Assembly (NCBI GenBank): GCA_963766435.1
Contig: CAVXZH010000005.1
Coordinates: forward strand, 265,610-329,609
Reading direction: 5' to 3'
DNA: 64,000 bases
Source: an uncultured cyanobacterium
GTDB lineage: Bacteria; Cyanobacteriota; Cyanobacteriia; Cyanobacteriales; Nostocaceae
Made by a program: the position numbers and the translations under genes. Shown here piece by piece: positions 9,123 through 56,459 of the stretch (its first letter is position 1; each line of letters begins with the position of its first letter). The notes under the pieces were generated by a model, which saw nothing but the letters and a program-made list of their open reading frames with translations, was not told the origin of the DNA and did not search any database.

Positions 9123-9128
9123 AAAATC

Positions 9129-20215: not shown

Positions 20216-20451
20216 AGTAAGTCCTTAATTATTGCAAAACCAAGAAGCGTTTTCTTCTAGATATTCTAATTCCCCGCCTTGCTGATACTCCGTGGCAATA
20301 TCATCGTTGACCAGAAGCGGTATACCGTTACTGTCAACGATGATATTGGTATCTCCAGAGGCAATAGCTTTTTGAAGTAGCCATTGAATAGGAATGGTTT
20401 GCAGCTGCTCGTAAAAATCTTCATGGTGGGGGAGAAGTAAATCTAGCGCCA

Positions 20452-22655: not shown

Positions 22656-22668
22656 TTAAGGAGATCAA

Positions 22669-23220: not shown

Positions 23221-23533
23221 GTATCCTAGAGGGATTGCCCAAAAACCACCAAGAATTACTCAACCGTGATTTACGGAATTCGCCATATTATGGGTCTGGA
23301 GTCCCCGGCTCTTTAACTAATTGGGTGACTAAAAAAGCCGTATCAATAGCCGTGAAAGAATTCACAAGACGAATTTTTGATAACGGGTGCGACACTCTAA
23401 TCCAGATAAGAGATAGAATAGGGAATTTATGGCTACCTGGTGACGCCTTGGTTATCAGGAATCCATCTCAAGCATGCACAAGAAAACCCTCACCAGAGCC
23501 ATATCAACCTAGTGGATTCTCGCCAAATAATAT

Positions 23534-25075: not shown

Positions 25076-25085
25076 GTAATTTAGA

Positions 25086-26618: not shown

Positions 26619-26924
26619 GTGCAATGAACCCGATCCATCTGGTTTTGCGATCGCCACGACATATAAGTAAAAAACCGCGCAGCGCATCTTGAAATATAAG
26701 TTAAGCTAATTAACAGGTTCCCTATGGGATTAAGCGATCGCTAAAGCGATCGCTAAACCAATCAGCTAACGCATTTACAAGGGTTTCAGCCTTCAGAGAT
26801 AGAGGATTTAAGCCAAAAATAAGCATCAGGAAAGATGCGGCGCTAGAACGCTTACGCTGTAATGGTTTCACCTTACTGATATTTATCTACCCTGGTTAGA
26901 GTATAACTTCTTTGGTCGTTACCA

Positions 26925-27366
26925 AGATTGCTGCTTCTTTACGCGAAATCGCTTCTAAGTTTGATGCTAAGATTCAAGCAAATGCTGAGAAAGTAATTGC
27001 TAAGTATCAACCCACAATGGATGCGATCGTTAGCAAGTATCGCCCCCGTTTAGAAGGTAAGACTGTCGCGATGATGGTTGGTGGTCTACGTCCTCGTCAC
27101 GTTGTTCCTGCTTTCCAAGACTTGGGTATGAGAATGATTGGTACTGGTTATGAGTTCGCTCATAATGATGACTACAAACGTACCACTCACTACATTGAAA
27201 ACGGTACCATCGTTTATGATGACGTTACCGCTTATGAATTTGAAGAGTTTGTCAAAGCTCTAAAACCAGATTTAATTGCTTCTGGTGTGAAAGAGAAGTA
27301 CGTATTCCAAAAGATGGGTCTTCCTTTCCGTCAAATGCACTCCTGGGATTACTCCGAACCTAACCA
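26925..27366 (+). CDS. nifD: nifD segment 2 (middle part)
   Basis: [28 protein letters not shown]...[16 protein letters not shown]...[10 protein letters not shown] matches NifD; ends at GGATTACTCCG. Confidence 0.9.
27356..27366. repeat. GGATTACTCCG 11-bp direct repeat (left copy) of nifD element 2
   Basis: Exact copy at 54554-54564; identical to the known Anabaena nifD-element core. Confidence 0.85.
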
Positions 27367-27599
27367 TGTGTGTGAAATTGATTGTAAATCAAGGGTTTTT
27401 AGTGGTGGGAATCCAGAAATTGAATTTATAGACTAAATATAATTGGTTATGTTTTATAATAACATTGTTTGTTGGTAACTGCAAATAATAGAACTCTGAT
27501 TGCTACTGCTGTGGACAGGTTTATTAAAATTTCATGAATAGTAAAGCTGTTAAATACGATATCTTTTTTATAGAAAATTCTTTAGACTAAAATTCATAA

Positions 27600-33458: not shown

Positions 33459-33881
33459 TTATGCTTCCGGACAGCGATCGCATACCCCATGCACTGTCAC
33501 TTCATAATTATCCACTTTTAACCCAGAACGAATTTGCTGTAAATCTATGCCGTGAATGTGCTCCCAAGGAATATCCTCAATTCCACCACAAGACTTACAG
33601 CGAAAATGATGATGTGGTGTAACGTTAGCGTCATAGCGACAAATCCCTTCGTCTAGCAGTACTTCCCGCACCAGTCCTGCATCTCGTAGCGCTTGTAAAG
33701 AACCGTAAACAGTTGCTTGAGAGGATGTTGGTGCTTCTTGGTTAAGATCATGCAAAATTTGTTCAGCGGTGGGATGATCTGTTCGATGAAGCAAATTCGC
33801 ATAAACCGCAAAGCGCTGAGGTGTTACTCTCAGTCCACAATCCTTGAGAGTTTGAATAATTCTGTTTACTGGCTGTTCCAT
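33459..33881 (-). CDS. Fur-family transcriptional regulator (PerR/FurC-like)
   Basis: 140 aa; ...HHHFRCKSCG...HGVCDRC; divergent from a peroxiredoxin gene. Confidence 0.65.
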   Translation of the reverse strand: MEQPVNRIIQTLKDCGLRVTPQRFAVYANLLHRTDHPTAEQILHDLNQEAPTSSQATVYGSLQALRDAGLVREVLLDEGICRYDANVTPHHHFRCKSCGGIEDIPWEHIHGIDLQQIRSGLKVDNYEVTVHGVCDRCPEA

Positions 33882-34058
33882 ACCCCTCTACTCCGCGTCT
33901 GGACGGCAAATCCTAAACGAACAGGTTTTTCTATGATAGTTTTTCCCTCATGTTAGCATTCTTTGCTAAGAATGCAAATTGTTCTACAATAATTATTAAG
34001 ATTAAGTAAATATTACTATTGACTTCTTCCTATCTAAGAATTATTCTTAGATATAGAA

Positions 34059-34682
34059 ATGTTCAAGTCAAACAAAAAAGTCCTTTTAAATTCATCACCA
34101 GAGGGAAGTATGACAGTTATTCAAACAGTACCAGATGTTACTTTCAAGACTCGTGTGCGTGATGAGTCTGTACCTGGTCCTAACCCTTATCGTTGGGAAG
34201 ACAAAACCACTCAACAGATTTTTGGTGGTAAAAAGGTAGTTCTGTTTTCCCTACCTGGAGCATTTACTCCTACCTGCTCATCTAACCATTTACCTCGCTA
34301 CGAAGAACTATATGATGAGTTCAAAGCTTTGGGCGTTGATGAGGTAATTTGTATATCCGTTAATGATGCTTTTGTCATGTTCCAATGGGGCAAGAATGTG
34401 GGCGCGAATCATGTCTTCTTACTACCTGATGGCAACGGAGAGTTTACACGTAAGATGGGAATGTTGGTTGACAAGTCTAATATCGGATTTGGATTCCGCT
34501 CCTGGCGTTATTCTGCACTGATTAATGACCTTCAAATTGAGAAAATCTTTGTAGAACCAGGCTTTGCAGACAACTATGGTGCTGATCCATTTGAAGTTTC
34601 TGATGCTGATACCATCCTAGCTTACTTGAAAAATACTAAATCTTCTGGTGTTTCTGCACCTCGTCTAGCCTTTGTTGGTTAA
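34059..34682 (+). CDS. Peroxiredoxin (Prx5/type II family)
   Basis: [10 protein letters not shown] peroxidatic Cys motif; probable start at MTVIQT (~34110). Confidence 0.7.
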
Positions 34683-34757
34683 TTAGTTTTAGGTTAAAAA
34701 GGGAATAGGAAATAGTGTTCTCTATTCCCTAGTCCCTACTCCTTACTCTCTACTCCC

Positions 34758-35750
34758 ATGAAACTCTCTAGCAAAAATCTGGATGTTCGCTTAAATACCC
34801 TCTATGATGCCATCATTGTTGGTGGTGGGACAGGGGGATTATCCGCAGCCATTTATTTAGCTCGCTATGGGCTGAAATGTTTGGTAGTAGAAAAAGGAAA
34901 AGGGCGATCGCTGTGGATGCAGGATTTGCGAAATTACTTGGGACTTGATCCACATACACCTGGTCGAGATATTCTCAATCATGGCACTCAACAAGCATTA
35001 AACTGGGGAGCAGATTATCTGCGCGGTTATGTGGAAGACGTGACAGATGAAGGGGAAAACTTTGCGGTCAAGGTGAAGGTGGGGAAGAAAGATAGTATCT
35101 ATCCGGTATTTCGCAGTAAATATATTATTGCTGCTTCGGGAATCATTGATGTTTTGCCTGAATTAGAGAATATGCAAAATGTCTATGATTATGCAGGTTA
35201 TACCTTACACGTGTGTATGATTTGCGATGGCTTTGATATGTGGAACGAAAAAGCAGTTTTGATTGTCAATTCCGAGAGTCAAATCAATGCAGCATTTGTA
35301 TTGAATTGGTTTACTCCTTATATCTCCGTCCTGACACATGGATTGTGTACAGTTAGTGATACCATGAAACAGAAACTAGCTGAACATGGATATCCATTAT
35401 ATGAATCAGCGATCGCCAGTTTCCAGGGTGAGAATCATCAACTGAGTGGTGTTGTGCTCACAGATGGGACTGTAGTTGAAGCCACAACAGGTTTAGTGAG
35501 TATGGGTTCAGTTTACCATAACCATTATTTAAAGGGAATTGAGGGACTGACCTGGGACGGGGAAAGTTTAGTGACCAATGAAATGGCTCAAACTACCCAT
35601 AATCGTATTTTTGCTTTAGGTGATTTGAAAAAAGGACTTAACCAAGTATCAATATCTGTAGCGGATGGAACTTTAGCCGCAACCCAAATTTGGCGGAATA
35701 TCCGTCGTGCTAGTACACCGCGCAAGTGGTTAGAAAATATCAAATCCTAA
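34758..35750 (+). CDS. FAD/NAD(P)-dependent oxidoreductase, thioredoxin-reductase-like
   Basis: DAIIVGGGTGGLSAAIYLAR dinucleotide motif; C..C pair VCMICDGF. Confidence 0.55.
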   Translation: MKLSSKNLDVRLNTLYDAIIVGGGTGGLSAAIYLARYGLKCLVVEKGKGRSLWMQDLRNYLGLDPHTPGRDILNHGTQQALNWGADYLRGYVEDVTDEGENFAVKVKVGKKDSIYPVFRSKYIIAASGIIDVLPELENMQNVYDYAGYTLHVCMICDGFDMWNEKAVLIVNSESQINAAFVLNWFTPYISVLTHGLCTVSDTMKQKLAEHGYPLYESAIASFQGENHQLSGVVLTDGTVVEATTGLVSMGSVYHNHYLKGIEGLTWDGESLVTNEMAQTTHNRIFALGDLKKGLNQVSISVADGTLAATQIWRNIRRASTPRKWLENIKS

Positions 35751-35753
35751 ATT

Positions 35754-36332
35754 TTAATCAGGGAAAGCCACACCAGTCATCGGGTCGCGGATATATAACC
35801 CTAGAGTCAGACTACGCATCACTTCATCCCAAACGGGTATTAGCTGCTCTGCTTGGTCAGCCCAATAATCAAACGTAATCAAACACTGAATATTCGAGCC
35901 TAAACCGATGCAAGTTCTTGAAAAAGCTTCCCTTGGTTCATCTTGAGTATCAATAAACTTAATTTGAGTCCAGACAATTCGCGCCGTTTGTCGTTTGACA
36001 GGAATGATTTCTCCTCTTTCAATCACATTACGACTATCATCTTCCATCACTTTTCGCAAAGTAGCTTTGAGGGGAAATAGAGTCCAGTCGTTAGGAGGTA
36101 GATGATTGTAGGACACTTCTAAACAACAATCATCCTTGGGAGGCTTATTATCCAGAAACTTGAAGGATTTTTCCTGTGGCTCAAATACCCAGCTATCAGG
36201 AACATTGAAACGAACTGCTCCTCTACCTGCGACAAAAATTTTATAACCAGGGGTAGATTCCCAATGATGGTCTGGTTTTAATTCAAGCGTTTCTTTAATC
36301 CATTTGAGATTGTCTTTCTTACGCTTTGCCAT
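35754..36332 (-). CDS. hypothetical protein
   Basis: 192-aa ORF. Confidence 0.3.
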   Translation of the reverse strand: MAKRKKDNLKWIKETLELKPDHHWESTPGYKIFVAGRGAVRFNVPDSWVFEPQEKSFKFLDNKPPKDDCCLEVSYNHLPPNDWTLFPLKATLRKVMEDDSRNVIERGEIIPVKRQTARIVWTQIKFIDTQDEPREAFSRTCIGLGSNIQCLITFDYWADQAEQLIPVWDEVMRSLTLGLYIRDPMTGVAFPD

Positions 36333-39282: not shown

Positions 39283-39640
39283 ATGAAATTGCCAATTTAT
39301 CGAGGTGATGGACAACAGGGGGAAGAATTACCCAAAAAATTGCCAGATTCCCCACGTTCTCGATTACTAAAACCAGAAAATTATATTGCAGATGCAGGTT
39401 TGCGAGATGCTTGTAATGTCGCATTATTATTAGGACAACCTTTATTACTAACCGGAGAACCTGGTTCTGGAAAAACTCAACTAGCTTACAGTCTTGCTTG
39501 GGAACTTGGTTTTGGTGAACCTTTTAAATTTGAAACTAAATCCACTAGTATTGCGCGGGATTTATTTTATATTTATGATGCTTTAAACCGATTTCAAGAT
39601 ATTCAAAGTCAAGCTGGTTCAGCTGAAGTTTTAAACTATA
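39283..39640 (+). pseudogene. AAA+ ATPase (MoxR/AAA_5/McrB-like), N-terminal part, interrupted by IS630
   Basis: Walker A LLLTGEPGSGKTQLA; reading frame resumes at 40671. Confidence 0.6.
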
Positions 39641-39649
39641 TAGCCTTTC

Positions 39650-40222
39650 CTAGTCTAGTGAGGTACAGTAGCAGCAGTGTGTAAACCAGTTATAAATATC
39701 CTCTAAAGATATCTGACCAAATGCATCTTGAATGGCTGATGCTAAATCTTGGTAATTTCTGGGACTGATTGAACGTAATAAATTCTTAATCTTAGACCAA
39801 CAATTTTCAATGGGTGAGAATTCAGGAGAATAGGGAGGTAAATAAATAAGTCTAGCACCTGCTTTAGTGATTAAAGCTTCAATTTCTTGACCCTTATGAA
39901 TTGAGCAATTATCCATAATTATACAAGCACCTGGCCAAAGTTTTGGTACTAATTTTTGAGCAATAAAAGCCTCAAATGTCAGACCATCAGTAGCACCAAG
40001 GATACTGTATTGAGCAATCACACCATCAAGACCAATTGCACCAATAATAGAAACATTTCTGCCACGTTGCTGAGGGCGTGAGCCATGAGCTCTTTTGCCT
40101 TTAGGTGCGCGGGCAAATAAACGTGTTAAAGCCAAGTTTACGCCTGACTCATCAAGGAAAATTAAGTCTTTAGCTAAGATTCCTTGGACTAATTGCCAAA
40201 ATTCTACTCGTTCTTTTTGCAC
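39650..40222 (-). CDS. IS630 transposase, DDE catalytic part (orfB)
   Basis: ...LIFLDESG...IIMDNCSIHKG...LPPYSPEFSPIE. Confidence 0.75.
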   Translation of the reverse strand: MQKERVEFWQLVQGILAKDLIFLDESGVNLALTRLFARAPKGKRAHGSRPQQRGRNVSIIGAIGLDGVIAQYSILGATDGLTFEAFIAQKLVPKLWPGACIIMDNCSIHKGQEIEALITKAGARLIYLPPYSPEFSPIENCWSKIKNLLRSISPRNYQDLASAIQDAFGQISLEDIYNWFTHCCYCTSLD

Positions 40223-40638
40223 CCTATCACTATATTTTTCGCTGGCATGCAGTGTTTTTTTTTGAATGTTATATTCAAGCGATTTAGCATCCTACCTACA
40301 GTTGAGCGTCCAATTAAAACTCCAGTTTTTTCTTCTAACAGATAACGTAGTTCTTCTAGTGTTGCATCATTATTTGCTGCTACAATCTCTTCCAAAATGT
40401 TTAATTGCTCAGGACTGAGTTTTGTTGGTGTTTGTTCTAACCGTATCTTTGGCGCAATTGTTCCCGTGTCTCGAAACTGTTTCAATAATTTCTCAACAAA
40501 ACTTACTGCAACTCGGAATTGTTTAGCTAGTTCACGTTGAGAAATATTTCCTTCCATATAGACATCTATAATTTTCTGGCGCAGGTCAAGCGAGTATGCT
40601 TTCATTTTTACATCCAATCCCTCTACAATCAATATCAC
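40204..40638 (-). CDS. IS630 transposase, HTH part (orfA); probably fused to orfB by frameshifting
   Basis: HTH ISQRELAKQF; overlaps orfB. Confidence 0.7.
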   Translation of the reverse strand: MILIVEGLDVKMKAYSLDLRQKIIDVYMEGNISQRELAKQFRVAVSFVEKLLKQFRDTGTIAPKIRLEQTPTKLSPEQLNILEEIVAANNDATLEELRYLLEEKTGVLIGRSTVGRMLNRLNITFKKKHCMPAKNIVIGCKKNE

Positions 40639-40670
40639 TATTGTACCTTACTAGACCGGGAAAGGCTATA

Positions 40671-41305
40671 TCACTTACCAAGCTTTAGGATTAGCGATTT
40701 TACAAACTCGGAATTTGGATGAGATAAAAGAATTTGTTCCTTCAGATTTTTCTCATGATGGACAAGTACGTTCTGTAGTTTTAATTGATGAAATTGACAA
40801 AGCTTCTCGCGATTTTCCTAATGATTTGCTTAATGAATTGGAACTGATGTATTTTCGGATTCCGGAATTAGGAAATCAGAAAATTACCGCAGACCCGAAA
40901 TTACAACCTATTGTGATTATCACTAGCAATTCTGAAAAAGATTTACCTGATGCTTTTTTGCGACGTTGTATTTATTATAATATCCCTTTTCCTACTGGTG
41001 ATCGATTGAGAAATATTATTGCAAATCAGTTAGGAATGAATATTACTAATCCATTTTTGCAATCAGCTATTAAACTATTTGAGAAATTACGTTCTCCTCA
41101 AAATAGATTCATCAAGAAACCTGCAACAGCAGAATTATTAAACTGGATTTTAGCTTTGCAAAAATTTAAGGATGTTTCCAATGACCATTTAATTCAACTA
41201 GATTCAAATTTGATTTTTTCCACTCTTAGTACTTTAATTAAAACAGCAGAAGACCAAGAAAAAGCTAAAAAAATTGTAGAACAATGGATAGAAGAACAGA
41301 AATAG
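40671..41305 (+). pseudogene. AAA+ ATPase C-terminal part
   Basis: Walker B VVLIDEIDKA, sensor-1 IVIITSN, arginine finger FLRRC. Confidence 0.6.
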
Positions 41306-43405: not shown

Positions 43406-44569
43406 ATGACACAATCTCCCCAGGACACCTCAACCCGGACTGAGTTTTTCAACGAATGCGGTAGTGTTCCAGAAGTGATTGAATTTTGCCCCAATCAACC
43501 ACCACCAAAAATCACTCTCCTGGACTACAATAAATTGATAGTGCAGAAAATCAATATCCAGCACCCAGAAGAATGCATTCCCTATCTCAACAGCGAATCA
43601 ATTTCTTGGGTTGATGTCGGTGGTCTAGGTGGAGAAGAAACTTGGCAACAACTCAAACAAGTATTTAATCTGCATCCACTCGTATTAGAAGATATTATTC
43701 ACGTCCCTCAACGTCCCAAAATGGAAGAATATGAGGAACAATTGGTCATTATCTCTCTGATGGTGTCGTTAGGAGAAGATGGTAAAAGTTTTCTCACCGA
43801 GCAAATTAGTTTGGTAGTAGGTAAAAACTATTTGTTGAGCGTCCAAGAGGAACCCTACCATGATTGCTTGCAATTAGTTCGGGATAGAATTCAATTAATT
43901 CATTCCCCCATTCGCAAATCAGGGGTAGATTATTTGTTATATTCCTTGATAGATGCCATCATTGATGGGTTTTTCCCCATTTTGGAAATGTATGGTGAGT
44001 TAATTGAGGACTTAGAAGCAGAGGTACTCAGTTCTCCAATGCCACATACGCTGGAGCGAATCTATGAAATTAAACGAGACCTTTTACAGCTTCGACGCAG
44101 CATTTGGCCACAGCGAGATGCAATTAATGCGTTGATTCGCGATAGTAGTGACTTAATTAGTCGTGATGTGCGAGTTTATTTACGAGACTGTTATGACCAT
44201 GTTATTCAGGTTTTAGACATTGTGGAAACCTACCGGGAGCTTACTTCCAGTCTGACTGATATTTATTTGTCTTCGGTCAGCAATCGGATGAATGAAGTCA
44301 TGAAAACCTTAACGATTATTTCCAGCATTTTTATCCCCCTCACCTTTATCGCGGGAATTTATGGAATGAATTTTGATCCTGAGAGTTCCCCTTTCAATAT
44401 GCCTGAATTGGGTTCGTATTGGGGGTATGTCACCACATTAGCAGTGATGTTAATCATCGCGATTGGTATGATTATCTTCTTCTGGTCTAGAGGTTGGTTC
44501 AAAGATTTTGCATCTGTGAAAAGTGAAGGGGCACCTACGTCGGGGCGTAACCCATCGCATCGCCCCTAA
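43406..44569 (+). CDS. corA: CorA-family Mg2+/Co2+ transporter
   Basis: C-terminal two TM helices with YGMNF (GMN) motif. Confidence 0.7.
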   Translation: MTQSPQDTSTRTEFFNECGSVPEVIEFCPNQPPPKITLLDYNKLIVQKINIQHPEECIPYLNSESISWVDVGGLGGEETWQQLKQVFNLHPLVLEDIIHVPQRPKMEEYEEQLVIISLMVSLGEDGKSFLTEQISLVVGKNYLLSVQEEPYHDCLQLVRDRIQLIHSPIRKSGVDYLLYSLIDAIIDGFFPILEMYGELIEDLEAEVLSSPMPHTLERIYEIKRDLLQLRRSIWPQRDAINALIRDSSDLISRDVRVYLRDCYDHVIQVLDIVETYRELTSSLTDIYLSSVSNRMNEVMKTLTIISSIFIPLTFIAGIYGMNFDPESSPFNMPELGSYWGYVTTLAVMLIIAIGMIIFFWSRGWFKDFASVKSEGAPTSGRNPSHRP

Positions 44570-44602: not shown

Positions 44603-45871
44603 TTATGGGACGCTCTTTAATTGCAAAGTATCTACGTCAAGATTATTATCCTCAAGCCAAACTGCAATCGGATTCTGACGCTTGATAACCGAACTCTTAA
44701 TTTCATCCAATTTAATCGGAGGTTTCAAAGTTGCCAATTTTTGTTTGAGTGGATGTAACTCTTTCAAAATCATTTCCTTGTCAGATGGATAAGCTTCCAC
44801 CTTACAAATAACCAGATGACAATCATAAACAATTTCATCTTGGATATTTTGTTTGCTTGAATAACCAGGTTGTTGAATAAGCTTTTGTTTTGCTTCTCCT
44901 AATTGTTCAATAGCCTTAGACCAATCTTTTAAACTCATATAAGTATAAGCTATATGAGCAGGATAACGGTCATTATCTTTATTCTTATCACTATCTCTCA
45001 ATGCTATAAAGATTTTTAAAGCATTTTTTACCAATTGTTCTTCTATTGATTCTTTCTGTGGTTCTGCATTCTCATAGAGTACTAATTGTGTTTGTCTAAA
45101 AATGTAGGTGCGAGTAGCAGTAGAGATATATTGAATATTTTCAATTAACTTATTTTCCTGTTCAAGTGAAAGTGTTAAACTTCTATCCAGATGACGACTT
45201 AAAAACTTTAATGTCTGTCCATCTATCTGAGCTTGGTCTTCCACTGCTTTAAGTTTTTGCTTGGTTGCATCAAGTTCTTGTCTCGTTACATCAAGTTCTC
45301 CTTTATTTTGGTTAACTTGTTTTTCGATTTTTTCCTGTCTTTTTGCAATTCCATCTACAGCCTGATTTAATAAACTTCTTCCACCATAACCACCAATAAT
45401 TGCTGTACCTAAAAACTTGATTAAGGAAAGATTTTCTTCCCCACCAGGTAAAATTAGAAATACAACTAATGCTCCACCTATACCAATTAGACAATCAGCT
45501 ATTACACCAAGGTAAATTACTTTTGCACTAGATTTATTAAAATTTCCAGATGCTGATTCTGTAACTAATTTCTGATCAGAATTGACAGAATTTTCCCCAA
45601 CTAGAACTGTTGATGGACTATCTTCACTAATATGGGGTAATTTTAGCTCTCCATTTTGTAGAGAATATAATAAACCACCAAATGAACCTGCTAATAAAAT
45701 GCTAACCACCTGACTAATATTGGCACTGAGTAAAAGTGGTGTTCCCTGAAACTCAATTAGAGATGGATTTCCATAAAACGTAGCCAAATAGGAGTCCGTT
45801 CCAAAGCTCAAAGTCAATCCTGGTAGAATGCTGAGAAGATAATACGGCTTATTCTTGGTATTCATTTTCAA
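44603..45871 (-). CDS. Membrane (4 predicted TM) + coiled-coil + C-terminal helical domain protein, paralog A
   Basis: Paralog of 46135-47373; shared blocks GGLLYSL.NGE, YLGVIADCLIG.GGALV.FLILPGG, GTAIIGGYGGR, DRYPAH.AY..M. Confidence 0.45.
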   Translation of the reverse strand: MKMNTKNKPYYLLSILPGLTLSFGTDSYLATFYGNPSLIEFQGTPLLLSANISQVVSILLAGSFGGLLYSLQNGELKLPHISEDSPSTVLVGENSVNSDQKLVTESASGNFNKSSAKVIYLGVIADCLIGIGGALVVFLILPGGEENLSLIKFLGTAIIGGYGGRSLLNQAVDGIAKRQEKIEKQVNQNKGELDVTRQELDATKQKLKAVEDQAQIDGQTLKFLSRHLDRSLTLSLEQENKLIENIQYISTATRTYIFRQTQLVLYENAEPQKESIEEQLVKNALKIFIALRDSDKNKDNDRYPAHIAYTYMSLKDWSKAIEQLGEAKQKLIQQPGYSSKQNIQDEIVYDCHLVICKVEAYPSDKEMILKELHPLKQKLATLKPPIKLDEIKSSVIKRQNPIAVWLEDNNLDVDTLQLKSVP

Positions 45872-46134: not shown

Positions 46135-47373
46135 TCAATTATTGAGCGCCTCTAAATTAGTTGGATTAATGTTTTTATCAAACTTAAGCAGCCAAGATTT
46201 AATCTCACTACTATCCATTAACACCCAATTCTCAATTTCACTTAATTTATAACCAGGGCCTAATTTTTTTAATTTTTCTTCGAGTTGCTCTATTTCCTTG
46301 AGATTCAGTTTTTCATCAGATGAAATTTTGGTTTTACAAATAACAAGATGAGATTCATAAACAATCTCATCTTTTTTATTTTCTTCAGCGATATAACCAG
46401 ATTTCTTAAGCTTATTTTTTGCTTCTTCTAATCTACTAATAGCCTGTTCCCACTTTTCTAAATTCATGTGAGCATAGGCTGCATGAGCAGGATAACGGTC
46501 ATTATTTTTGGCTTTACCATCTTGATCCTGATCACTATCTCGCAATGCCTCAAATATTTTTAGCGTATTGCTTATCAATTGTTGTTTTATTGTTGGGTTA
46601 AGTTCTCGTTTTATATTATGGTATAGGACTGACTGTGCTTCTCTAAAGATAGAGGTGCGAGCAAGAGGAGAAACATATTGAATATTTTCTATTAACTTTT
46701 TTTCCAACTCAAATGGAAGTGATAAACTCTGATCAAGATGACGACTTAGTAATCTTAATGTCTCACCATCTTTCTGGGCTTGAGCTTCCACTGCTTTAAG
46801 TTTTTCTTCGTTTATATTGATCTGTTTCTCAATTTTATCTTGCCTTTGTGAGATTCCATTCAGAGCCTGATCCAATAAACGTCTTCCACCATAACCACCA
46901 ATTATTGCTGTACCTAACAACTGTGTCAAAGAAAAGTCTTTATCCTTATCCCCACCAGGTAAAATCAGAAATATCACTAATGCTCCACCTACACCAATTA
47001 GACAATCAGCTATTACACCAAGGTAAAACACTTTTGAAATGCATTCATTATGGCGCTTAGGTTCCTTTTCTGTGTCAGAAGTTTTAAGATTTGATGGAGT
47101 TATAACTTGTATCTCACTATTCTTACTAGAATTAGTAATGTATGGTAGATTGATTTCTCCATTCTTTAAAGAGTATAGCAAACCACCAAATGCTCCTGCT
47201 AACACAATTTTAAGCGTGTATATAGCGCTTGGGCTGAGTGAAAATGATATTTCCTGAAACTGAAATAGGAATGATACTCCATAAAACGTAGCCAGATAAG
47301 TACCAATTCCAAGACTCAAAACCAATGCTAGTAAGAAAATCAGAAAATATGACGGGTTATTGTTGGTACTCAT
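46135..47373 (-). CDS. Membrane + coiled-coil protein, paralog B
   Basis: As above. Confidence 0.45.
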   Translation of the reverse strand: MSTNNNPSYFLIFLLALVLSLGIGTYLATFYGVSFLFQFQEISFSLSPSAIYTLKIVLAGAFGGLLYSLKNGEINLPYITNSSKNSEIQVITPSNLKTSDTEKEPKRHNECISKVFYLGVIADCLIGVGGALVIFLILPGGDKDKDFSLTQLLGTAIIGGYGGRRLLDQALNGISQRQDKIEKQININEEKLKAVEAQAQKDGETLRLLSRHLDQSLSLPFELEKKLIENIQYVSPLARTSIFREAQSVLYHNIKRELNPTIKQQLISNTLKIFEALRDSDQDQDGKAKNNDRYPAHAAYAHMNLEKWEQAISRLEEAKNKLKKSGYIAEENKKDEIVYESHLVICKTKISSDEKLNLKEIEQLEEKLKKLGPGYKLSEIENWVLMDSSEIKSWLLKFDKNINPTNLEALNN

Positions 47374-47527: not shown

Positions 47528-48154
47528 GTGAGTGGTTGTCATATATTTCCTGGCTTTGCTACTACACAGACAACTATGATAAAATCATATTGTGTTTGCA
47601 TTGTCAATGTAATAGCTGACAACATGATTACCACCATCAAGCACCACTACACCTTGGATGAATATCGCACCATCGAAGAGAAAGCAGAAGGACGCAGCGA
47701 ATATCGAGATGGAGAAATTGTACTCATGGCTGGAGGTTCACTTAATCATAGCCGCATTAATCGGAATATTCTCACCTATCTAACCTTTTCACTGCGGGAT
47801 ACTCAATACGAGTCAATTAATAGTGATTTACGATTGTGGATTCCTGAATATCGACGCGGAGTATATCCAGATGCGATGGTTTTTGATGGTCAACCACAAC
47901 TAAATGATAATCGCACTGATGAAGTATTAAATCCTATCTTGATTGTAGAAGTTTTATCTCCTTCTACCGCAGACTATGACCGAGAAAATAAATTTCGGAT
48001 GTATCGCTCGATTTCTAGTTTTAGAGAATATTTATTAATTGAGCAGAATGAACCTTTTGTGGAACGCTATATTAAGCAGAGTCAAGGTTGGTTACTAACT
48101 GATTTTAATAACTTAGAACAATTGATTTTCTTGGAGACTGACCTAGAACATTGA
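47528..48154 (+). CDS. Uma2-family endonuclease
   Basis: ...EYRDGEIVLMAGGS...PDAMVF...PILIVEVLSPST... Confidence 0.55.
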   Translation: MSGCHIFPGFATTQTTMIKSYCVCIVNVIADNMITTIKHHYTLDEYRTIEEKAEGRSEYRDGEIVLMAGGSLNHSRINRNILTYLTFSLRDTQYESINSDLRLWIPEYRRGVYPDAMVFDGQPQLNDNRTDEVLNPILIVEVLSPSTADYDRENKFRMYRSISSFREYLLIEQNEPFVERYIKQSQGWLLTDFNNLEQLIFLETDLEH

Positions 48155-48222
48155 ATCTCCAGACATAGCTTGACATTTCCAGACATTGTGTAGATAATAG
48201 AGTTGAAAACTTGAATAACGCA

Positions 48223-48823
48223 ATGGCAAATCATGTACCTCCAAGGATTGCTGCTACCAGACTGGGAGTTAGCACCAAAACCCTCGAAAGGTGGCTTAAA
48301 GACGGGAAAATCAAAGGCATTTTCACCCCGTCTGGACAAAGAAGATACGACGTGGACTCAGTTATCTCTACTAGAACTACTGAACAAGAAGACGGACGAG
48401 CCACTATCTTATATGCCAGAGTTTCAAGCCACAGTCAAAAACCTGACCTTGAACAACAAGTACAGTTTCTTCAGTCTCACTATCCCGATGCGGAACTTAT
48501 CACCGACGTTGGAAGTGGACTCAACTTTAGAAGAAAAGGTTTACAAACCTTACTGGACAGAGTTCTCACAAACACTTGCAAACTTGTTGTCATTGCCCAC
48601 AAAGATTGGCTTTGTCGCTTTGGGTTCGATTCTTATCTCATGGTTGTGTGCTAGGCAGCAGACTGAGGTATTGGTTCTCAACCAAACGAACCTCAGCCCA
48701 GAAAGAGAAATGGTGGAAGATATTCTCGCCATCATCCACGTCTTTAGTTGCAGACTGTATGGACTCAGAAAGTACAAAAAACAAATTAACGAGGACGCTG
48801 ACTTACCGAGTTTACCCAAATAA
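48223..48823 (+). CDS. tnpA: IS607-type TnpA (MerR-like HTH + serine recombinase), apparent frameshift near 48630
   Basis: ILYARVSSHSQ catalytic-Ser motif; C-terminus ...TEVLVLNQTNLSPEREMVEDILAIIHVFSCRLYG continues in another frame. Confidence 0.55.
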
Positions 48824-50012
48824 AGAACTTGAGCAAATTTGGAAAAAATGGGTAGCTGCGGCTCGTAAAGTTTATAACATCTCCATTGCTTATCTAAACC
48901 AGCACCAAGGTTACATCAAGATATGTAATAAAGGTGGGAAGATGGGATTTAGAACCATGCTGAAAGCTTCTGGTTTAATCCCTCAGTGGTGTATTGATTT
49001 AAGTGCCTCTAAAATACTAGATAATTCCTCAATGGCAGCTTATACAGCTTGGGTTAATACTCAAAGAAACCCTAAGTTTATTGGTAAAGGCAAAAATCGA
49101 AAACCGCATCCTCAAGCTGGTTTAAAAATAGCAAAGTTTCGTTCAATTCGTGACTCTAAGCAAACCATCCAGTTCGACCCGACTAACTATAAAAATGGGA
49201 CTTGGATGATATCTACGACCAAGCATCTACCAAAACCTGAATTCAAAGGTCATGATTTTTGTCCATTAACCAATGGAGCAACTGAGTTGACCTACAATAA
49301 AGGACGATGGTTTGCTCACTTTCCGGTTGAATTTGAAGTAACTCCACAAGTTACCAATAAGGTAATAGCACTTGACCCTGGTATTAGAACTTTCATGACT
49401 GGGTTTGATGGTAGTGACTTTTTGGAATTTGGTGGTGGAGATTTCAATGGATTAGCAAAACTTTGTTGGCATTTAGATAAACTGAAATCTAGACACTATC
49501 AAGCTAAAGGGCAAATTTATAAGCGGCTGAGACATAAACTAAAACAGGCGATGGAAAGAATCAGGACTAGAATTCAAAATCTACGTTCTGAATGTCATAA
49601 ACAAGTAGCATCGTATTTAGCTAGAAACTACGATATTATTGTGCTTCCAACTTTTGAAACATCAGAAATGGTGGCAAAAAAGAAGCGTAAGTTGAGAAAT
49701 AAAACTGCCAGAGCAATGATGACCTGGGCATTTTATCAATTCTCTCAAACACTCGAACATCTGTGTAACCGATATGGTTCCAGATTGGTAAGAATCACGG
49801 AAGAATATACTTCTAAAACTTGTACCAAATGTGGGCATATTCATTCAAAGCTTGGTGGCTCTAAATTGTTTAAATGCCCTCATTGTGGTTACGAAATACC
49901 GCGTGATTTTAATGGAGCCGTGGGGATTTTCCTCAAGGCTATGTGGGATTCCACCTTCACCAACACTGTTGGTAATGTTGTACTTGATGTCCAAGATGTC
50001 TCTGATGTCTGA
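48762..50012 (+). CDS. tnpB: TnpB (OrfB, RuvC-like with zinc finger)
   Basis: LTYRVYPNKELEQIWKKW... N-terminus; C-terminal CTKCGHIH...CPHCGYEIPRDFNGAVGI. Confidence 0.7.
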   Translation, partial: DSESTKNKLTRTLTYRVYPNKELEQIWKKWVAAARKVYNISIAYLNQHQGYIKICNKGGKMGFRTMLKASGLIPQWCIDLSASKILDNSSMAAYTAWVNTQRNPKFIGKGKNRKPHPQAGLKIAKFRSIRDSKQTIQFDPTNYKNGTWMISTTKHLPKPEFKGHDFCPLTNGATELTYNKGRWFAHFPVEFEVTPQVTNKVIALDPGIRTFMTGFDGSDFLEFGGGDFNGLAKLCWHLDKLKSRHYQAKGQIYKRLRHKLKQAMERIRTRIQNLRSECHKQVASYLARNYDIIVLPTFETSEMVAKKKRKLRNKTARAMMTWAFYQFSQTLEHLCNRYGSRLVRITEEYTSKTCTKCGHIHSKLGGSKLFKCPHCGYEIPRDFNGAVGIFLKAMWDSTFTNTVGNVVLDVQDVSDV

Positions 50013-50805: not shown

Positions 50806-51615
50806 TCATGTCCCGATAATTGGAATTAAATATTCTTCAACTTCTTGGATATAGGCTGTTAAACCTGTATCAACACCTCTTTTATATAAAACTTCTAAAT
50901 TTGTATCTTCCCAGCACTGCTGTTCTCGTTCCATGTCTCCACCTGTTAGTTGCTCGACTACTACTTTCGGATTTCTGATTCGGTTAGGTTCTTCAAAATC
51001 AGTAGAGCGGAGTCTATATGATTCTATGCATGGATTAAAATTTAATTGAGTCTTAATCTCTTCTAAAATTTGCTCCTCCTGTTGATTAGAGGAAATAAAG
51101 CCGTTCAGAACCCATGCTTCACGTTTTGGATTAGCTACACCAATAATAATTTCTAATTTAGGATGTTTATTGATGTCTTGTAACCGTGCTTGTTCAATTC
51201 CTTCCTTACGTTCTGGTTGATTATCTAAATCGCGGATAAATATAACAGCTCTTATTCTTCGTGTTTTTTGTAAAAAACGGACTAAATTAAGAATCTTGAT
51301 AGATGCAGCTCCATCAGCTTTTAAAGGTATACCATTACCATGACCCAAATATTTAACAGGTCGATAATTTAATTCTTGTTTTGCATATTCAATAATTTCC
51401 ATAATGTTTTTCCAACAGGAATATTCAGTTCCTGCTTGCAAACCACTCCATCGGAATATATATTGTATTTGCTCAGACTCTAACCAGTCAATTTTATCTA
51501 TTAAAACACGCTCGGCTAATTTAGTAGCAGTTCTTGCATCTGCACTACTCTCAACTATGATAATAAATTCAATCACTGACCTCTCCTGCAATAACCCAAT
51601 CTTCACCCTCAGCAC
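50806..51615 (-). CDS. Toprim-like nuclease-domain protein (DUF4435/DUF4276-like), partner of the upstream ATPase
   Basis: Conserved acidic E (IIIVESSAD) and DxD (VIFIRDLDNQ) spaced as in Toprim; overlaps the ATPase gene by 47 nt. Confidence 0.45.
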   Translation of the reverse strand: MLRVKIGLLQERSVIEFIIIVESSADARTATKLAERVLIDKIDWLESEQIQYIFRWSGLQAGTEYSCWKNIMEIIEYAKQELNYRPVKYLGHGNGIPLKADGAASIKILNLVRFLQKTRRIRAVIFIRDLDNQPERKEGIEQARLQDINKHPKLEIIIGVANPKREAWVLNGFISSNQQEEQILEEIKTQLNFNPCIESYRLRSTDFEEPNRIRNPKVVVEQLTGGDMEREQQCWEDTNLEVLYKRGVDTGLTAYIQEVEEYLIPIIGT

Positions 51616-52807
51616 CCCAAAATTCGCCAGTTGTTAAAGTTTGTTTTGCCCATTCTATATCAGGATGTTCATCTAAACGCTTGGAAATTGTGAAACCTGA
51701 ATCGCTGTTATTTAATATATGTACTTGAGCAGGAGCAAGTTCGTCAATAATATAAGGAGAATGAGTAGAAAAAATAATTTGTAGGTTTTTATTATTTTGT
51801 ATAATTTCCTTAAAAACATTCATCAGCTGACGTTGGGCTTTAGGATGAAGTCCCTGTTCTACATCATCTAATAAAACTAAATTAGGTTGATTAGGATTTA
51901 TGATTACAGTTAATAAGCCTAGAGTTAGCATTGTTCCTTCGCTAATTGCATGGGCTGGTATACGTTCACCTGTATTCATATCTAATATAACTTCTTGTCC
52001 TGCCATTTTTTCACTTTGTTCATAGGAAATTGATTTACCATCAACTTCAATTAAACGTTTGTGAGTAACTGGAACTATTGCTCTTTTTATCCCGATTTTG
52101 CGTACATTAGGTACAATCCGACTCAACATTTCTTCGATTAATTTAAATTTATCTGGAGCTTCATTCCGCAGAAAATCTAAAGTAGGTGCTAATCCTGAAC
52201 CATCAAACTCGACTTTTGGTATGATTTCACTACTGTAAGCAGCTTTAGTAAGATTGCTTGCAACTAACTTTAGGTAAACAGTATTTATTAAAGATTTAGA
52301 AATTTCATTTGGTAAAAGTTCAGAAATCATCTTTGATGATATATTCGACGATTTTTTCTTAAATTCCCAAGTATCTTCATTTCCATTTGCTTTCCATGAT
52401 ACTGTTGCATTCCATCCAGTATTTTTTTTCTTACCACTATCAATATTTTCCTGCTTCCAATGATAAGAAATTTCCCAATTTTTTTTATTATCGTCATCTT
52501 CCCAAAAACCATTTACTGTCACAGAGATATCTTTTTCCCCAATTGTTGTAATAAATTCAGGTGAGCTTTCATCCTTAAATATGCTTACAAATCTAGTATT
52601 AGTAATACTGCTTAGGTAGTATAATGATTGCAGTACTGATGTTTTGCCAGTACTGTTTTTTCCTACAAGCGCACACAAGCGGGAATTATCGAAATTAAGT
52701 TCTGTCGATTTCAGAGCTTTGAAATTATGAAGTAATACCTTCTGTAACATTTGATAATTAATATTTCTAGATACAATAACCACTTCTATTCTATCATCTA
52801 TGAGCAA
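51569..52807 (-). CDS. ABC-type ATPase of the AAA_15/AAA_21 family (OLD/AriA-like)
   Basis: Walker A GKNSTGKTS, D-loop/Walker B LVLLDDVEQGLHP, H-loop FSTHSPYII. Confidence 0.6.
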   Translation of the reverse strand: MLIDDRIEVVIVSRNINYQMLQKVLLHNFKALKSTELNFDNSRLCALVGKNSTGKTSVLQSLYYLSSITNTRFVSIFKDESSPEFITTIGEKDISVTVNGFWEDDDNKKNWEISYHWKQENIDSGKKKNTGWNATVSWKANGNEDTWEFKKKSSNISSKMISELLPNEISKSLINTVYLKLVASNLTKAAYSSEIIPKVEFDGSGLAPTLDFLRNEAPDKFKLIEEMLSRIVPNVRKIGIKRAIVPVTHKRLIEVDGKSISYEQSEKMAGQEVILDMNTGERIPAHAISEGTMLTLGLLTVIINPNQPNLVLLDDVEQGLHPKAQRQLMNVFKEIIQNNKNLQIIFSTHSPYIIDELAPAQVHILNNSDSGFTISKRLDEHPDIEWAKQTLTTGEFWGAEGEDWVIAGEVSD

Positions 52808-53021
52808 TTATGCGATCGCTCTTTGGAAGATGGGATTTGGGATTGTTTAAGATAGGCCATTGAATTTCTTCTCGGACTTCAAAAGGTAGCTGTTCTGGAC
52901 GTTCAAGTGGTTCACCTTCCCAGGAACCTACAACTTCTTCAATAAATTCACGTGTATATCCTAATTCTTCCTGCATTTTAGTTACTCGCTTGTGTTTAAG
53001 GTGGATTGCGCTAAAGCGCAA
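52794..53021 (-). CDS. small hypothetical protein
   Basis: 75-aa ORF overlapping a copy of the dispersed palindrome arm. Confidence 0.2.
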   Translation of the reverse strand: MRFSAIHLKHKRVTKMQEELGYTREFIEEVVGSWEGEPLERPEQLPFEVREEIQWPILNNPKSHLPKSDRIIAHR

Positions 53022-53052: not shown

Positions 53053-54387
53053 TTATCTGATTTTACCATATTCTGTATCCAAAATATGATTCTGTTGATA
53101 AATTATTTCCATTCTCAATTTCTCCATCTCTAACTTCAATCGCTCATTCTCAATTTTCAATGTAGCATTTTCATCCTTAATCACCTCAACCTCATTCCGC
53201 TTGCTCAAAGCCTGATTAATCGCTAGTTTTCGCATATCTAAGGAAAACCAACGTTGATAAGTTTGTGTATGCACCTGTACACTATGCCCTAAATTATCTG
53301 CTGCTGCTTTGATGGGAATTCCTAAAATATGTGCTCTAATTGCCCAAGCATGACGTAAATCATAGGGTTTGAAATCTAATCCAATTTTTCTAAACCACCA
53401 ACTTACTCGTTGGGTTAGTGCGGTTATTTCAGCATGATTAGTATTATCTTTTTTATTAACTGCTGTGATTAACATTTCTACATATTTGGGATTACTTAAA
53501 TCAAATTCTTCAATCCATTGTTTATATAATGGTAAAGCTTGTCTTTCTCCAGTTTTACAATCTTTATGAACTTTCCAGGTTAAATCTACATTTTCTTTAC
53601 TTAACCACCAATCAATATCAGGATTAATGAAAAGTTCTCTTGGTCGTAATCCAAAAACTGCTAACATTCCATAAGTCCAGCGCCAAAGTTGCCAGCTATC
53701 TTTCACTTCTTGGTTTACTTGTTTGCCTCGATTATTTAAATAATCTTCAAATTTGATGATTCCGGCAATTATTTCCCCATCTGTGGGAATTTTCCGAGAA
53801 TTATTCTCAGGCATTTTCGCATATTTAGATAAATCAATCTCAATTTTAAAGGTCTGACAAAATGCAGCAATAGCTCTAGCAGCATTATATTTAGACCATT
53901 CTTTATCAATTTTTTCAATTGAATTAATCAGATTTTCGGCAGTTGCTAATTCTTCGGGATTAGTAAAACGCTTGGTACGAGAAAAGTAATAAAAAAATGT
54001 ATGTTCACTTTTAGTAGTACGCTGATGGGTTTTAAAATATTCTGTGGCAAATTCTGCCAATAACTCTCCCATAGTTTTAATATCTTTTTTAATAACTTCT
54101 TTACTTAAATATTTATCATTCCAGACAAAAGTTTTCCGGGCAATTAACTTTCCCAATTCATAAGCTTCTTCTTCAGCAGTTTTCAATCCGTCTAAGTTAG
54201 CAGGAATATTTAAACTCAGATTATATTGTTTTCTCCCAGTTCCATTGGTATCTTTATCTTCTGGTTTAATTGGTAACGTTGCACGTAGTTGCAGACTTCC
54301 ATTGGATTCTCGAATTGTGACTTTTGTTTTCGCAGATTTCAAACGGAGATTCACTTGTTCTAATTCCGTTGTTAATTTTGTTGTCAT
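53053..54387 (-). CDS. xisA: XisA site-specific recombinase of nifD element 2
   Basis: 444 aa with the same conserved motifs; at the nifK-proximal border of an element bounded by GGATTACTCCG. Confidence 0.85.
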   Translation of the reverse strand: MTTKLTTELEQVNLRLKSAKTKVTIRESNGSLQLRATLPIKPEDKDTNGTGRKQYNLSLNIPANLDGLKTAEEEAYELGKLIARKTFVWNDKYLSKEVIKKDIKTMGELLAEFATEYFKTHQRTTKSEHTFFYYFSRTKRFTNPEELATAENLINSIEKIDKEWSKYNAARAIAAFCQTFKIEIDLSKYAKMPENNSRKIPTDGEIIAGIIKFEDYLNNRGKQVNQEVKDSWQLWRWTYGMLAVFGLRPRELFINPDIDWWLSKENVDLTWKVHKDCKTGERQALPLYKQWIEEFDLSNPKYVEMLITAVNKKDNTNHAEITALTQRVSWWFRKIGLDFKPYDLRHAWAIRAHILGIPIKAAADNLGHSVQVHTQTYQRWFSLDMRKLAINQALSKRNEVEVIKDENATLKIENERLKLEMEKLRMEIIYQQNHILDTEYGKIR

Positions 54388-54553
54388 ACAGTATCTGTGT
54401 AGCTATGTGAATATTTCTCTAATTTCCTGCTCCCTGCTGCCTTCTACCTTACATTTATTCTCAAAATAAATATGTTATTAACAAACAATGTTTAGGGCTG
54501 ACATTGATTATTATAAACATTAATTTATCGAAAATTAGTCAATGATTAATCAG

Positions 54554-54564
54554 GATTACTCCGG
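54554..54564. repeat. GGATTACTCCG direct repeat (right copy)
   Basis: Exact match to 27356-27366. Confidence 0.85.
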
Positions 54565-54703
54565 CCCTTATCACGGTTACGACGGATTTGCTATCTTCGC
54601 TCGTGATATGGATTTAGCTCTTAACAGTCCCACCTGGGGATTAATCGGCGCTCCCTGGAATAAAACTGCTAAGGCTAAAGCTACAGCTAAAGCTAAAGTG
54701 TAG
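54565..54703 (+). CDS. nifD: nifD segment 3 (C-terminal 46 codons)
   Basis: [46 protein letters not shown]; segments 937+442+139 = 1518 nt = 506 codons in frame. Confidence 0.9.
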
Positions 54704-54924: not shown

Positions 54925-56459
54925 ATGCCTCAGAATCCTGAAAAAATTCAAGACCACGTTGAGTTATTCCACCAACCAGAATATCAACAGCTTTTTGAAA
55001 ACAAGAAGCAGTTTGAAAATGGTCATAACCCTGAAGAAGTACAACGGGTTGCAGAATCAGACGAAGTCTTGGGAATATCGTGAAAAGAACTTTGCTCGTG
55101 AAGCTTTAACCGTTAACCCTGCTAAAGGTTGTCAACCTTTAGGTGCAATCTTTGCTGCGGTTGGTTTTGAAGGTACTCTACCTTTTGTTCAAGGTTCTCA
55201 AGGTTGCGTGGCTTACTTCCGTACCCACTTAACCCGTCACTATAAAGAACCATTCTCTGGTGTATCTTCTTCTATGACTGAAGATGCAGCGGTGTTTGGT
55301 GGACTGCAAAACATGATTGATGGCTTGGCTAACTCTTATACTCTGTACAAGCCCAAGATGATTGCTGTCTGCACAACTTGCATGGCTGAAGTAATTGGAG
55401 ATGACTTACAAGCGTTCATCAACAATGCTAAGAATGCTGGTTCTGTTCCTCAAGATTTCCCAGTTCCTTACGCTCACACTCCTAGCTTCGTTGGTTCCCA
55501 CATCACTGGTTACGACAACATGATGAAGGGTATTCTTCACACCTTAACCGCAGGTAAGAAGAAGCCCACCAGCAATGGCAAAATTAACTTTATCCCTGGT
55601 TTTGATACCTATGTTGGTAACAACCGGGAAATCAAGCGGATTGCTTCTTTGTTCGGCTTTGATTACACAATTCTAGCTGACAATAGCGATTACTTGGATT
55701 CACCTAACACTGGTGAGTTTGATATGTACCCAGGTGGTACCAAGTTGGAAGATGCAGCAGATGCAATTAACGGTAAAGCTACTGTGGTTCTGCAAGCACA
55801 CTCCACTCCTAAAACCCGTGAGTACATTGCTAAGGAATGGCAACAACCTGTTGTAGTTTCTCGTCCTTGGGGTATTAAGGCTACTGATGAATTCTTGATG
55901 CAACTCAGTGAATTAACAGGTATCGCCATTCCTGAAGAATTGGAAATTGAACGTGGTCGTGCCGTTGATGCCATGACTGACTCTCATTCCTGGGTTCATG
56001 GTAAGCGCTTCGCTATCTACGGTGAACCAGATTTAGTTTACAGCATGGTTGGTTTCATGTTGGAATTGGGTGCTGAACCTGTACACATTTTGGTTCACAA
56101 CTCTAACGAAGTATTTGAGACAGAACTCAAAGCATTGTTAGCTTCTAGCCCCTTCGGTAAGATGCAACTATCTGGGGTGGTAAGGACTTATGGCACATGC
56201 GTTCCTTACTGTTTACTGAACCTGTTGACTTGTTGATTGGTAACACTTACGGTAAGTACCTGTGGCGTGATACTAAGACACCTTTGGTAAGAATTGGTTA
56301 TCCTATCATGGACGCCACCACTTACACCGCTATTCTACTATCGGTTATCAAGGTGTGATCAACTTGCTCAACTGGATTGTAAATACAATCTTCGATGACA
56401 TCGATCATAACACCAATATTCCTTCCAAGACCGATATTTCTTACGACTTGATCCGTTAA
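54925..56459 (+). CDS. nifK: nifK (MoFe protein beta) with three apparent single-base frameshifts (~55057, ~56160, ~56313)
   Basis: ATG 54925 [28 protein letters not shown]... switches frame to [27 protein letters not shown]...; later ...[28 protein letters not shown].../[23 protein letters not shown]... each in a new frame. Confidence 0.85.

Follow-up and report, generated by a model that had tools for sequence, protein, structure and literature searches.

The stretch of DNA considered here (the window) is 64,000 nucleotides long and comes from an uncultured member of the Nostocaceae (GCA_963766435.1, contig CAVXZH010000005.1, positions 265,610 to 329,609), which is a heterocyst-forming cyanobacterium. 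The window includes a nif cluster whose nifD gene is interrupted by an excision element, and this report focuses on two overlapping genes that are carried on the minus strand near one end of that element. One of them encodes an ABC ATPase of 393 amino acids from the OLD-like AAA_15/AAA_21 group (51569..52750), and the other encodes a partner protein of 256 amino acids, a probable Toprim-superfamily nuclease from an unnamed family (50806..51576).

An initial annotation of the window had described two overlapping open reading frames (ORFs) here, of 412 and 269 amino acids. Both ORFs are present on the minus strand between 50806 and 52807, but each has a later start. The mechanical ATPase ORF reaches a TTG at 52807, whereas the homologues in 80 loci align from residue 1 of a protein that begins at the ATG at 52750. 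These 80 loci, all of them cyanobacterial, were kept from 145 stretches with a relative that were found in a search across 185,579 species genomes, and counts out of 80 given below refer to them. The homologues of the partner begin at MIEF, which places its start at the GTG at 51576, and a GTG start is found in at least 23 related loci. Because both gene starts were corrected, the overlap, which is real, measures 8 nucleotides (GTGATTGA, 51569..51576, minus strand, read from the sequence) and not 47. A GGAGAGG lies three bases upstream of it, and the same (A/G)TGnnTGA junction occurs in 75 of the 80 loci. This conserved overlap suggests that the ATPase and its partner are translationally coupled. 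The two genes are not chance ORFs, since homologues of the partner are numerous and both genes have low ratios of nonsynonymous to synonymous substitution (dN/dS).

The ATPase is clearly an OLD-like ABC ATPase of the AAA_15/AAA_21 group, as had been annotated. Both Pfam profiles are matched end to end and well above their cut-offs: AAA_15 with 95.5 bits (cut-off 32.1, E = 6.6e-27, profile positions 1-374 of 374) and AAA_21 with 95.6 bits (cut-off 27, E = 7.6e-27, profile positions 3-304 of 304). The motifs quoted in the initial annotation are all there: the ATPase has GKNSTGKTS, LLDDVEQGLHP and FSTHSPY, and the partner has RDLDN. LLDDVEQGLHP had been called a D-loop, but it is the Walker B segment. 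The ATPase thus has a Walker A (G-K-N-S-T-G-K-T-S), a signature-like ISEGT, a Walker B (LLDD-V-E) and an H-loop (STHSP), and G-x-N-S-x-G-K-T, LLDD-x-E and STHSP are kept across 68 aligned ATPase sequences. In such ATPases the residue after the Walker B aspartate is normally a catalytic glutamate. All 68 sequences have a second aspartate at this position (DD and not DE; residues 295-296, window 51863-51868), and this replacement may mean slow ATP turnover. A PADLOC scan of the ATPase gave 158 matches, the best of which was HEC-01A (5.3e-34); generic AriA/AAA models, PDC-M25A, AbiLi, mad3, PtuA and Old ranked lower. The nearest solved chains are PtuA and an OLD nuclease.

The partner has no Pfam or NCBIfam match above threshold, and yet it belongs to a large family. 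A 90%-identity database contains 510 homologues, the top 120 of which are all cyanobacterial with an identity of at least 65%, and a 50%-identity library contains 1071 representatives, 225 of them below 1e-30. Members also occur in a Myxococcota metagenome-assembled genome (MAG) and in a Lamprocystis MAG; a word-indexed search from the Myxococcota member returned four matches, none of them annotated. In an alignment of 139 family members five residues are invariant (E9, D116, E153, W155 and L239), and D13, D118 (at least 90%) and R123 are nearly so.

An AlphaFold2 model built from this alignment has a mean predicted local distance difference test score (pLDDT) of 96.9 and a predicted template modelling score of 0.93. 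It replaced an earlier model from 19 close homologues, which was poor (pLDDT 68.5). The model consists of an alpha/beta core (residues 1-160), with strands at 2-8, 41-44, 108-116 and 142-148 and helices between them, followed by an all-helical C-terminal domain (165-255). E9 is located after β1, D116 and D118 at the end of β3, and E153 and W155 after β4. The Toprim fold is a three-layer alpha/beta structure with the sheet order β2-β1-β3-β4. In the Toprim layout, which includes DUF4276 and RloB, a conserved Glu ends β1 and a DxD follows β3 (PMC12065111), and both of these features are present in the partner. The initial annotation had proposed a Toprim-like protein from a conserved E and a DxD; these residues are indeed conserved and placed as in Toprim proteins, but no profile of the Toprim clan was reached. 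Structure prediction gave a confident alpha/beta model for which Foldseek found no solved neighbour. Sequence searches of solved structures with the 19- and 139-sequence partner profiles gave matches at chance level only.

RloB is the only Pfam family that the window partner touches (E = 0.0035, 18 bits against a cut-off of 31.5), and mad4 (E = 0.0013-0.0021) and PDC-M25B are the only PADLOC models that it touches. Among the 139 family members, Pfam matches are limited to RloB in six (best 4.1e-5) and Toprim in one, with none for DUF4435 or DUF4276. Three HEC-01B models are matched by 20, 10 and 5 of the 139 (best 3.7e-7), PDC-M25B is matched by seven (4.1e-7), and some members also match mad4. 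A useful comparison is a Meiothermus plasmid, where a true DUF4276 protein is encoded beside an AAA ATPase inside a type I restriction-modification (R-M) operon; this protein matches HEC-01B at 1.4e-80 and also matches the divergent HEC-01B models that the partner family matches. With hhalign, which was informative in local alignments only and not in global ones, the partner family aligned to 29 DUF4276 proteins with E = 3.1e-3 (probability only 10%) and to 77 HEC-01B-type proteins with E = 3.3e-4 (probability only 38%). The alignments to three DUF4276-type profiles are local, cover 46-50 columns and keep the DxD and an E-A-W in register (E = 3e-3 to 3e-4). The same program gave nothing against P2 Old, which was used as a single sequence.

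Taken with the model, these results argue that the partner is probably a Toprim-superfamily nuclease related to DUF4276 and HEC-01B. Judged by the same profiles its family is distinct and falls outside DUF4276, DUF4435 and RloB as they are now defined. For the profiles named in the initial annotation, therefore, the searches supported AAA_15/21 for the ATPase and gave no DUF4435, DUF4276 or Toprim for the window partner.

The ATPase gene is directly upstream of the partner gene in all 80 cyanobacterial loci. Of eight distant members, at least six also have an AAA_15/21 gene before the partner gene, and for the remaining two the gene upstream is either cut off or without annotation. The pairing is therefore obligate. 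In two metagenomic stretches (L170 and L171; 1767-11513) a 41%-identical partner and its ATPase are placed between brxB-brxC/pglY and the pglX-type methyltransferase of BREX operons, and other distant pairs are solitary, with housekeeping genes around them. Purifying selection acts on both genes: dN/dS is 0.10-0.25 in the ATPase and, for the most part, 0.11-0.43 in the partner. The pair is decayed in about 10% of the related loci. The partner has acquired independent premature stops at six different positions in six of the 80 loci (L031, L037, L040, L043, L066 and L079), versus a nonsense codon in the ATPase in one (L043); two further loci (L069 and L080) have internal ATPase deletions. The excess of nonsense mutations in the partner is what would be expected if it were a toxic effector, and the partner may be the costly or harmful component of the pair. 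In the window the ATPase and the partner have complete frames with every conserved motif intact.

The location of the pair in an excision element, which had been inferred initially, was confirmed by the exact repeats and by xisA. Two copies of the 11-bp direct repeat GGATTACTCCG (27346..27356 and 54553..54563, plus strand, both exact matches) bracket a 27.2-kb nifD-1355 element. The left copy is inside nifD, whose frame breaks here, and the 3' end of nifD resumes at the right copy. The same repeat is given for the nifD-1355 element of Scytonema UTEX 2349, whose layout agrees with that of the window (PMC4874684, Table B). The tyrosine recombinase gene xisA (53053..54387, minus strand) is at the nifK-proximal end of the element and is oriented opposite to nifD; it has a weak Phage_integrase match, and XisA homologues occupy the same position in relatives. 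Around the element the window contains the 3' part of nifH (5416-6015), three pieces of nifD (6164-7108, 26912-27436 and 54553-54703), nifK from 54926, and nifE and nifN farther downstream.

The pair shares its strand with xisA and is located about 300 bp downstream of it. A XisA homologue is encoded upstream on the same strand in 25 of the 80 loci, with an identity of 78-85% except in L016 (50%), and nifK follows on the opposite strand past the XisA homologue in 19 of these 25. All xisA-linked copies, that of the window among them, group in one Nostocales clade when the concatenated proteins are placed in a neighbour-joining tree; the only clade members that lack xisA come from contigs of insufficient length to reveal it. 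Copies from other genera (Microcoleus, Coleofasciculus, Tychonema and others) fall into clades of their own, which have no xisA. The Pelatocladus copy (truncated partner) and the LEGE 11386 copy (internally deleted ATPase) were left out of the tree; neither has xisA within about 5-6 kb upstream, and the former is in a non-nif context (L040), where it adjoins a homologue (2698-3276) of the window ORF at 35754-36332. These patterns show that within the Nostocales the pair has been inherited beside xisA as a unit.

The ATPase has been seen before. Hilton, Meeks & Zehr (2016) listed an 'ATPase' in six nifD-1355 elements and in no other genome, for which there was no explanation; the partner was not listed (PMC4874684). 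In Scytonema UTEX 2349 this gene (Tol9009DRAFT_00060800) adjoins xisA (..60810) (PMC4874684). The window-type ATPase is almost certainly the same gene, because the Scytonema gene adjoins xisA and corresponds to one of our loci (L009). What differs from the 2016 description is its range, as it is now found in 25 xisA-linked loci and in many non-heterocystous cyanobacteria. The nifD elements of PCC 7120, A. variabilis and N. punctiforme do not have the pair (PMC4874684), and so it is not needed for excision.

The divergence of the Scytonema locus (L009) displays a pattern of its own. When it is compared with L005, L006, L007, L013, L019 and L023, which are Nostoc loci, the synonymous divergence of the pair is 0.09-0.25 and that of the flanking xisA and nifK is 0.54-0.94. 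In Nostoc calcicola (L047) the opposite is true and the pair is more diverged than nifK. By these values, nifD elements seem to have exchanged the pair separately from its flanks.

The initial annotation had likened the pair to the known anti-phage architectures of PARIS and Gabija. The design of an ABC ATPase with a Toprim-type protein holds in outline, but these two labels do not. The nearest known system is instead HEC-01, which PADLOC calls 'Hma-embedded candidate 01' and which consists of the ABC ATPase HEC-01A and the TOPRIM/DUF4276 protein HEC-01B (Payne et al., 10.1101/2024.01.29.577857). Both systems have two genes, for an ABC ATPase and a small Toprim-type partner, HEC-01A is the best match of the ATPase, and about 20-30 of the 139 partner-family members match HEC-01B models. 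Furthermore, relatives are embedded in other defence operons (BREX and type I R-M). However, the window partner has no HEC-01B match at E ≤ 0.1, and so PADLOC detects component A and not component B. In the window family, moreover, about 45 residues are added between β1 and β3 and about 90 more form an additional helical domain at the C terminus (256 amino acids in total, as compared with about 205-220 for HEC-01B), and the window pair is in a nifD excision element and not in an Hma system. The pair is best filed as a divergent relative of HEC-01.

Other systems with a similar design fit less well. PARIS, which combines the ABC ATPase AriA with the DUF4435 Toprim nuclease AriB and in which anti-restriction proteins such as Ocr set AriB free to cleave tRNA (tRNA-Lys), was rejected because neither the window partner nor any of the 139 members matches DUF4435. 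The 'AriA' matches in PADLOC span 304 and 373 positions, much as the generic profiles AAA_21 and AAA_15 do, and the window ATPase has 393 amino acids, as compared with the 53-55 kDa given for AriA in the literature. In class 1 and class 2 OLD proteins and in GajA a single polypeptide contains both domains, and Gabija has a UvrD-type helicase gene besides. In the window the genes are split and the neighbouring ORFs include no UvrD-like helicase, which excludes Gabija and class 2 OLD. Septu was set aside for want of an HNH partner. In MADS, the Mad3 ATPase and the Mad4 DUF4276 protein resemble the pair (mad3 5.8e-23 for the ATPase, and mad4 is touched by the partner) and deletions of mad3 and mad4 weaken MADS defence (10.1101/2023.03.30.534895). 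However, the NCBIfam MAD3 model (NF047739) gives 68.8 bits against a cut-off of 420, the other mad genes, mad6-8 among them, are not present, and the neighbours in the window are xisA, an insertion sequence (IS) element and a Uma2 gene. Finally, AbiL (the AbiLi ATPase with the RloB protein AbiLii) and the RloA/RloB pairs of type I R-M loci share an ATPase type (AbiLi 1e-23), but the partner stays at its 18 bits for RloB against 31.5 and only the six members noted above match that family.

We consider it probable, at about two chances in three, that the pair is a self-contained conflict module directed against phages or mobile elements and carried as cargo, a reading drawn by analogy with the systems just described. 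The OLD-like ABC ATPase would be the sensor or regulator, and the partner, as a metal-dependent Toprim-superfamily nuclease, would be the effector. Coupling through the 8-nucleotide overlap would favour making both proteins together, and they would then probably assemble into a complex. As in PARIS, OLD, Gabija and MADS, the ATPase might restrain the nuclease, and a cue from a phage or mobile element, along with the binding or hydrolysis of ATP, would free or activate it. The nuclease could then cut DNA or tRNA by means of its acidic cluster (E9, D116, D118 and E153) and thereby halt either the cell or the infection. In this genome and throughout the Nostocales the pair is cargo of the nifD element, in the slot proximal to the integrase, and it is therefore carried by vegetative cells and goes with the excised circle in heterocysts.

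Some observations weigh against this assignment. The window partner is below threshold for HEC-01B, DUF4276, DUF4435, RloB and Toprim, hmmsearch between the partner family and DUF4276 found nothing in either direction, and the hhalign probabilities are only 10-38%. A Foldseek search of the partner model against PDB and BFVD produced no significant neighbour, and its tubulin matches (template modelling score about 0.3) are noise. A tblastn search of plasmid and phage collections with the partner found no homologue, the gene tree mostly tracks taxonomy and is less patchy than is typical of defence genes, and ten other proteins of the element were scanned with PADLOC, which recognised no other defence gene among them. 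A HEC-01 representative gave no protection against the coliphages tried (10.1101/2024.01.29.577857). Lastly, in Nostoc relatives the ATPase ATG is preceded by a 35-nucleotide leader whose Shine-Dalgarno sequence is AAGGATG, and the window leader (52751-52790) reads AGAAATA in its place. This degenerate ribosome-binding site may make translation initiation of the ATPase weaker in the window.

Other explanations have to be weighed as well. The pair could stabilise the element in an addiction-like manner by penalising vegetative cells that lose it, for example if a long-lived nuclease outlasts the ATPase. All adequately flanked Nostocales copies, save the two decayed ones, are directly downstream of xisA and form one clade, Hilton et al. 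saw the unexplained ATPase only inside elements, the nuclease gene is a repeated site of nonsense mutations, and toxin-antitoxin-like remnants occur in the same slot. However, Microcoleus, Coleofasciculus, Tychonema and others have the pair without xisA, distant lineages have it among housekeeping genes, and many nifD elements have persisted in its absence, the ones in PCC 7120, A. variabilis and N. punctiforme included; nor was a differential-stability or antitoxin feature identified. We therefore regard such a function as unlikely. Much more improbable is a role in the developmental rearrangement itself, whereby the pair would aid XisA excision or process the excised circle in heterocysts. 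The linkage to xisA in 25 loci, the shared strand 300 bp downstream with no terminator-like site between, and the fact that Toprim and ABC ATPase proteins act on DNA would all fit that role, but the well-studied nifD elements excise normally without the pair, the xisA-ATPase spacer is variable and contains unrelated inserts, and non-heterocystous cyanobacteria and other phyla also have the pair.

It is harder still to credit that these genes are a housekeeping ATPase pair of the RecF/SMC type that serves DNA repair or chromosome maintenance. The ATPase does have a Pfam SMC_N match (1.5e-11) and a RecF N-terminal match, the latter confined to residues 21-72 in the Walker A region, but its best matches are ATPases of defence systems and every NCBIfam score is far under its cut-off. 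With relatives in only 145 of 185,579 species genomes, a mobile element as its home and some copies decaying, the pair does not carry this label, which was rejected for the patchy distribution and the mobile context. A different question is whether the pair in this genome is an intact-looking but silent remnant with little or no expression. The degenerate ribosome-binding site as compared with the Nostoc relatives, the GTG start of the partner, the frameshifts in the nearby nifK, nifE and IS genes and the decay in about 10% of loci could be read in this way; however, both frames are complete with their motifs intact, at least 23 related loci also use a GTG start, and the nearby frameshifts may be assembly errors. 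Silence is thus a doubtful account, and the reading we prefer is still that of a conflict module carried as cargo.

The surroundings of the pair are less regular than the pair itself. Between xisA and the ATPase is a 75-amino-acid ORF (52794..53021, minus strand), an uncertain gene with no family match. Homologous stretches occur in only six of the 80 loci, and Nostoc loci have a different small ORF there. The ORF presumably resembles the C-terminal part of small cyanobacterial antitoxins. It may be what is left of an antitoxin-like gene, and it does not belong to the conserved pair. The spacer is a variable insertion site: in an alignment only about 35 nucleotides before the ATPase ATG are conserved and there is no shared promoter. 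A promoter and terminator scan found promoter-like sites at the rate of shuffled sequence and no terminators, and it therefore gives no information on the transcription unit.

Downstream of the pair is an IS607-type insertion (48211..50012, plus strand) with a split serine-recombinase tnpA (48211-48823) and tnpB, recognised by Resolvase, MerR, OrfB_IS605 and Cas12f1-like_TNB. This insertion and a 120-amino-acid ORF separate the pair from a Uma2 gene (47528-48154; Uma2 3.9e-30). A gene of this family of putative restriction endonucleases is just 3' of the partner in 17 of the 80 loci, from Nostocales, Zarconia and a Cyanobacteriota MAG that is unclassified, and in Coleofasciculus (L082) too; examples are L005 (6873-7388), L028 (3572-3802) and L082 (8905-9501). 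In some loci it shares the strand of the partner at a distance of about 100 bp, and in others the two genes converge. Uma2 may be a third component or, since its paralogues are numerous, a chance neighbour.

The nif cluster as a whole has at least three separate excision elements, each with a XisA-family recombinase. One interrupts nifH near nucleotide 405 (recombinase 4010-5437). Another, which is phage-like and about 19.8 kb long, is inserted in nifD (7109-26911) and has a recombinase (7177-8586), a DUF3987 primase/helicase (10042-13263) and tail-like ORFs. The third is the 27.2-kb nifD-1355 element (27346-54563). Outside the elements, nifK has three frames near its 3' end (56170-56340) and nifE has one frame change (~57345); these breaks and that in the IS607 tnpA are either indel errors of the assembly or decay.

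The nifD-1355 element also contains several genes of cellular type (33459-36332 and 43406-44569). They include a Band_7 protein confirmed by Pfam, and Fur-, peroxiredoxin-, thioredoxin-reductase- and CorA-like proteins recognised by eye from their translations. A MoxR-like AAA ATPase gene (39283-41305), read in the same way, seems to be split by an IS630-type insertion of two ORFs (39650-40638). Two adjacent paralogous genes of about 415 amino acids each (44603-45871 and 46135-47373) match nothing in Pfam or PADLOC. Their products have membrane segments at the N terminus, then a part that is coiled-coil-like and finally a TPR-like tail.

In conclusion, pairs in which an ABC ATPase is accompanied by a Toprim nuclease are a recurring design of bacterial immunity, as in OLD, Gabija, PARIS, HEC-01, Mad3/4 and AbiL. 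This design was already known, and the association of the ATPase with the nifD element was partly known and unexplained. What is new is the partner family, which is large (the 1071 clusters at 50% identity), undetected by Pfam and marginal in PADLOC. Because no Pfam model detects the family and the PADLOC models do so only marginally, annotation pipelines would probably miss it. In addition, the only gene that Hilton et al. (2016) found to be exclusive to nifD elements can now be given a name. To our knowledge, no defence system of the ABC ATPase-Toprim class has been tested experimentally in cyanobacteria. If the pair does defend its host or stabilise its element, it would be the first candidate for a benefit or a selfish function among the cargo of a developmentally excised element. 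It is a long shot that the pair is the reason why some nifD elements persist, either by killing vegetative cells that lose the element or by repaying the host with protection against phages, and that it is removed from the chromosome in heterocysts as part of their development; if this were true, the retention of such interrupting elements by heterocystous cyanobacteria, an old puzzle, would have an explanation that can be tested.

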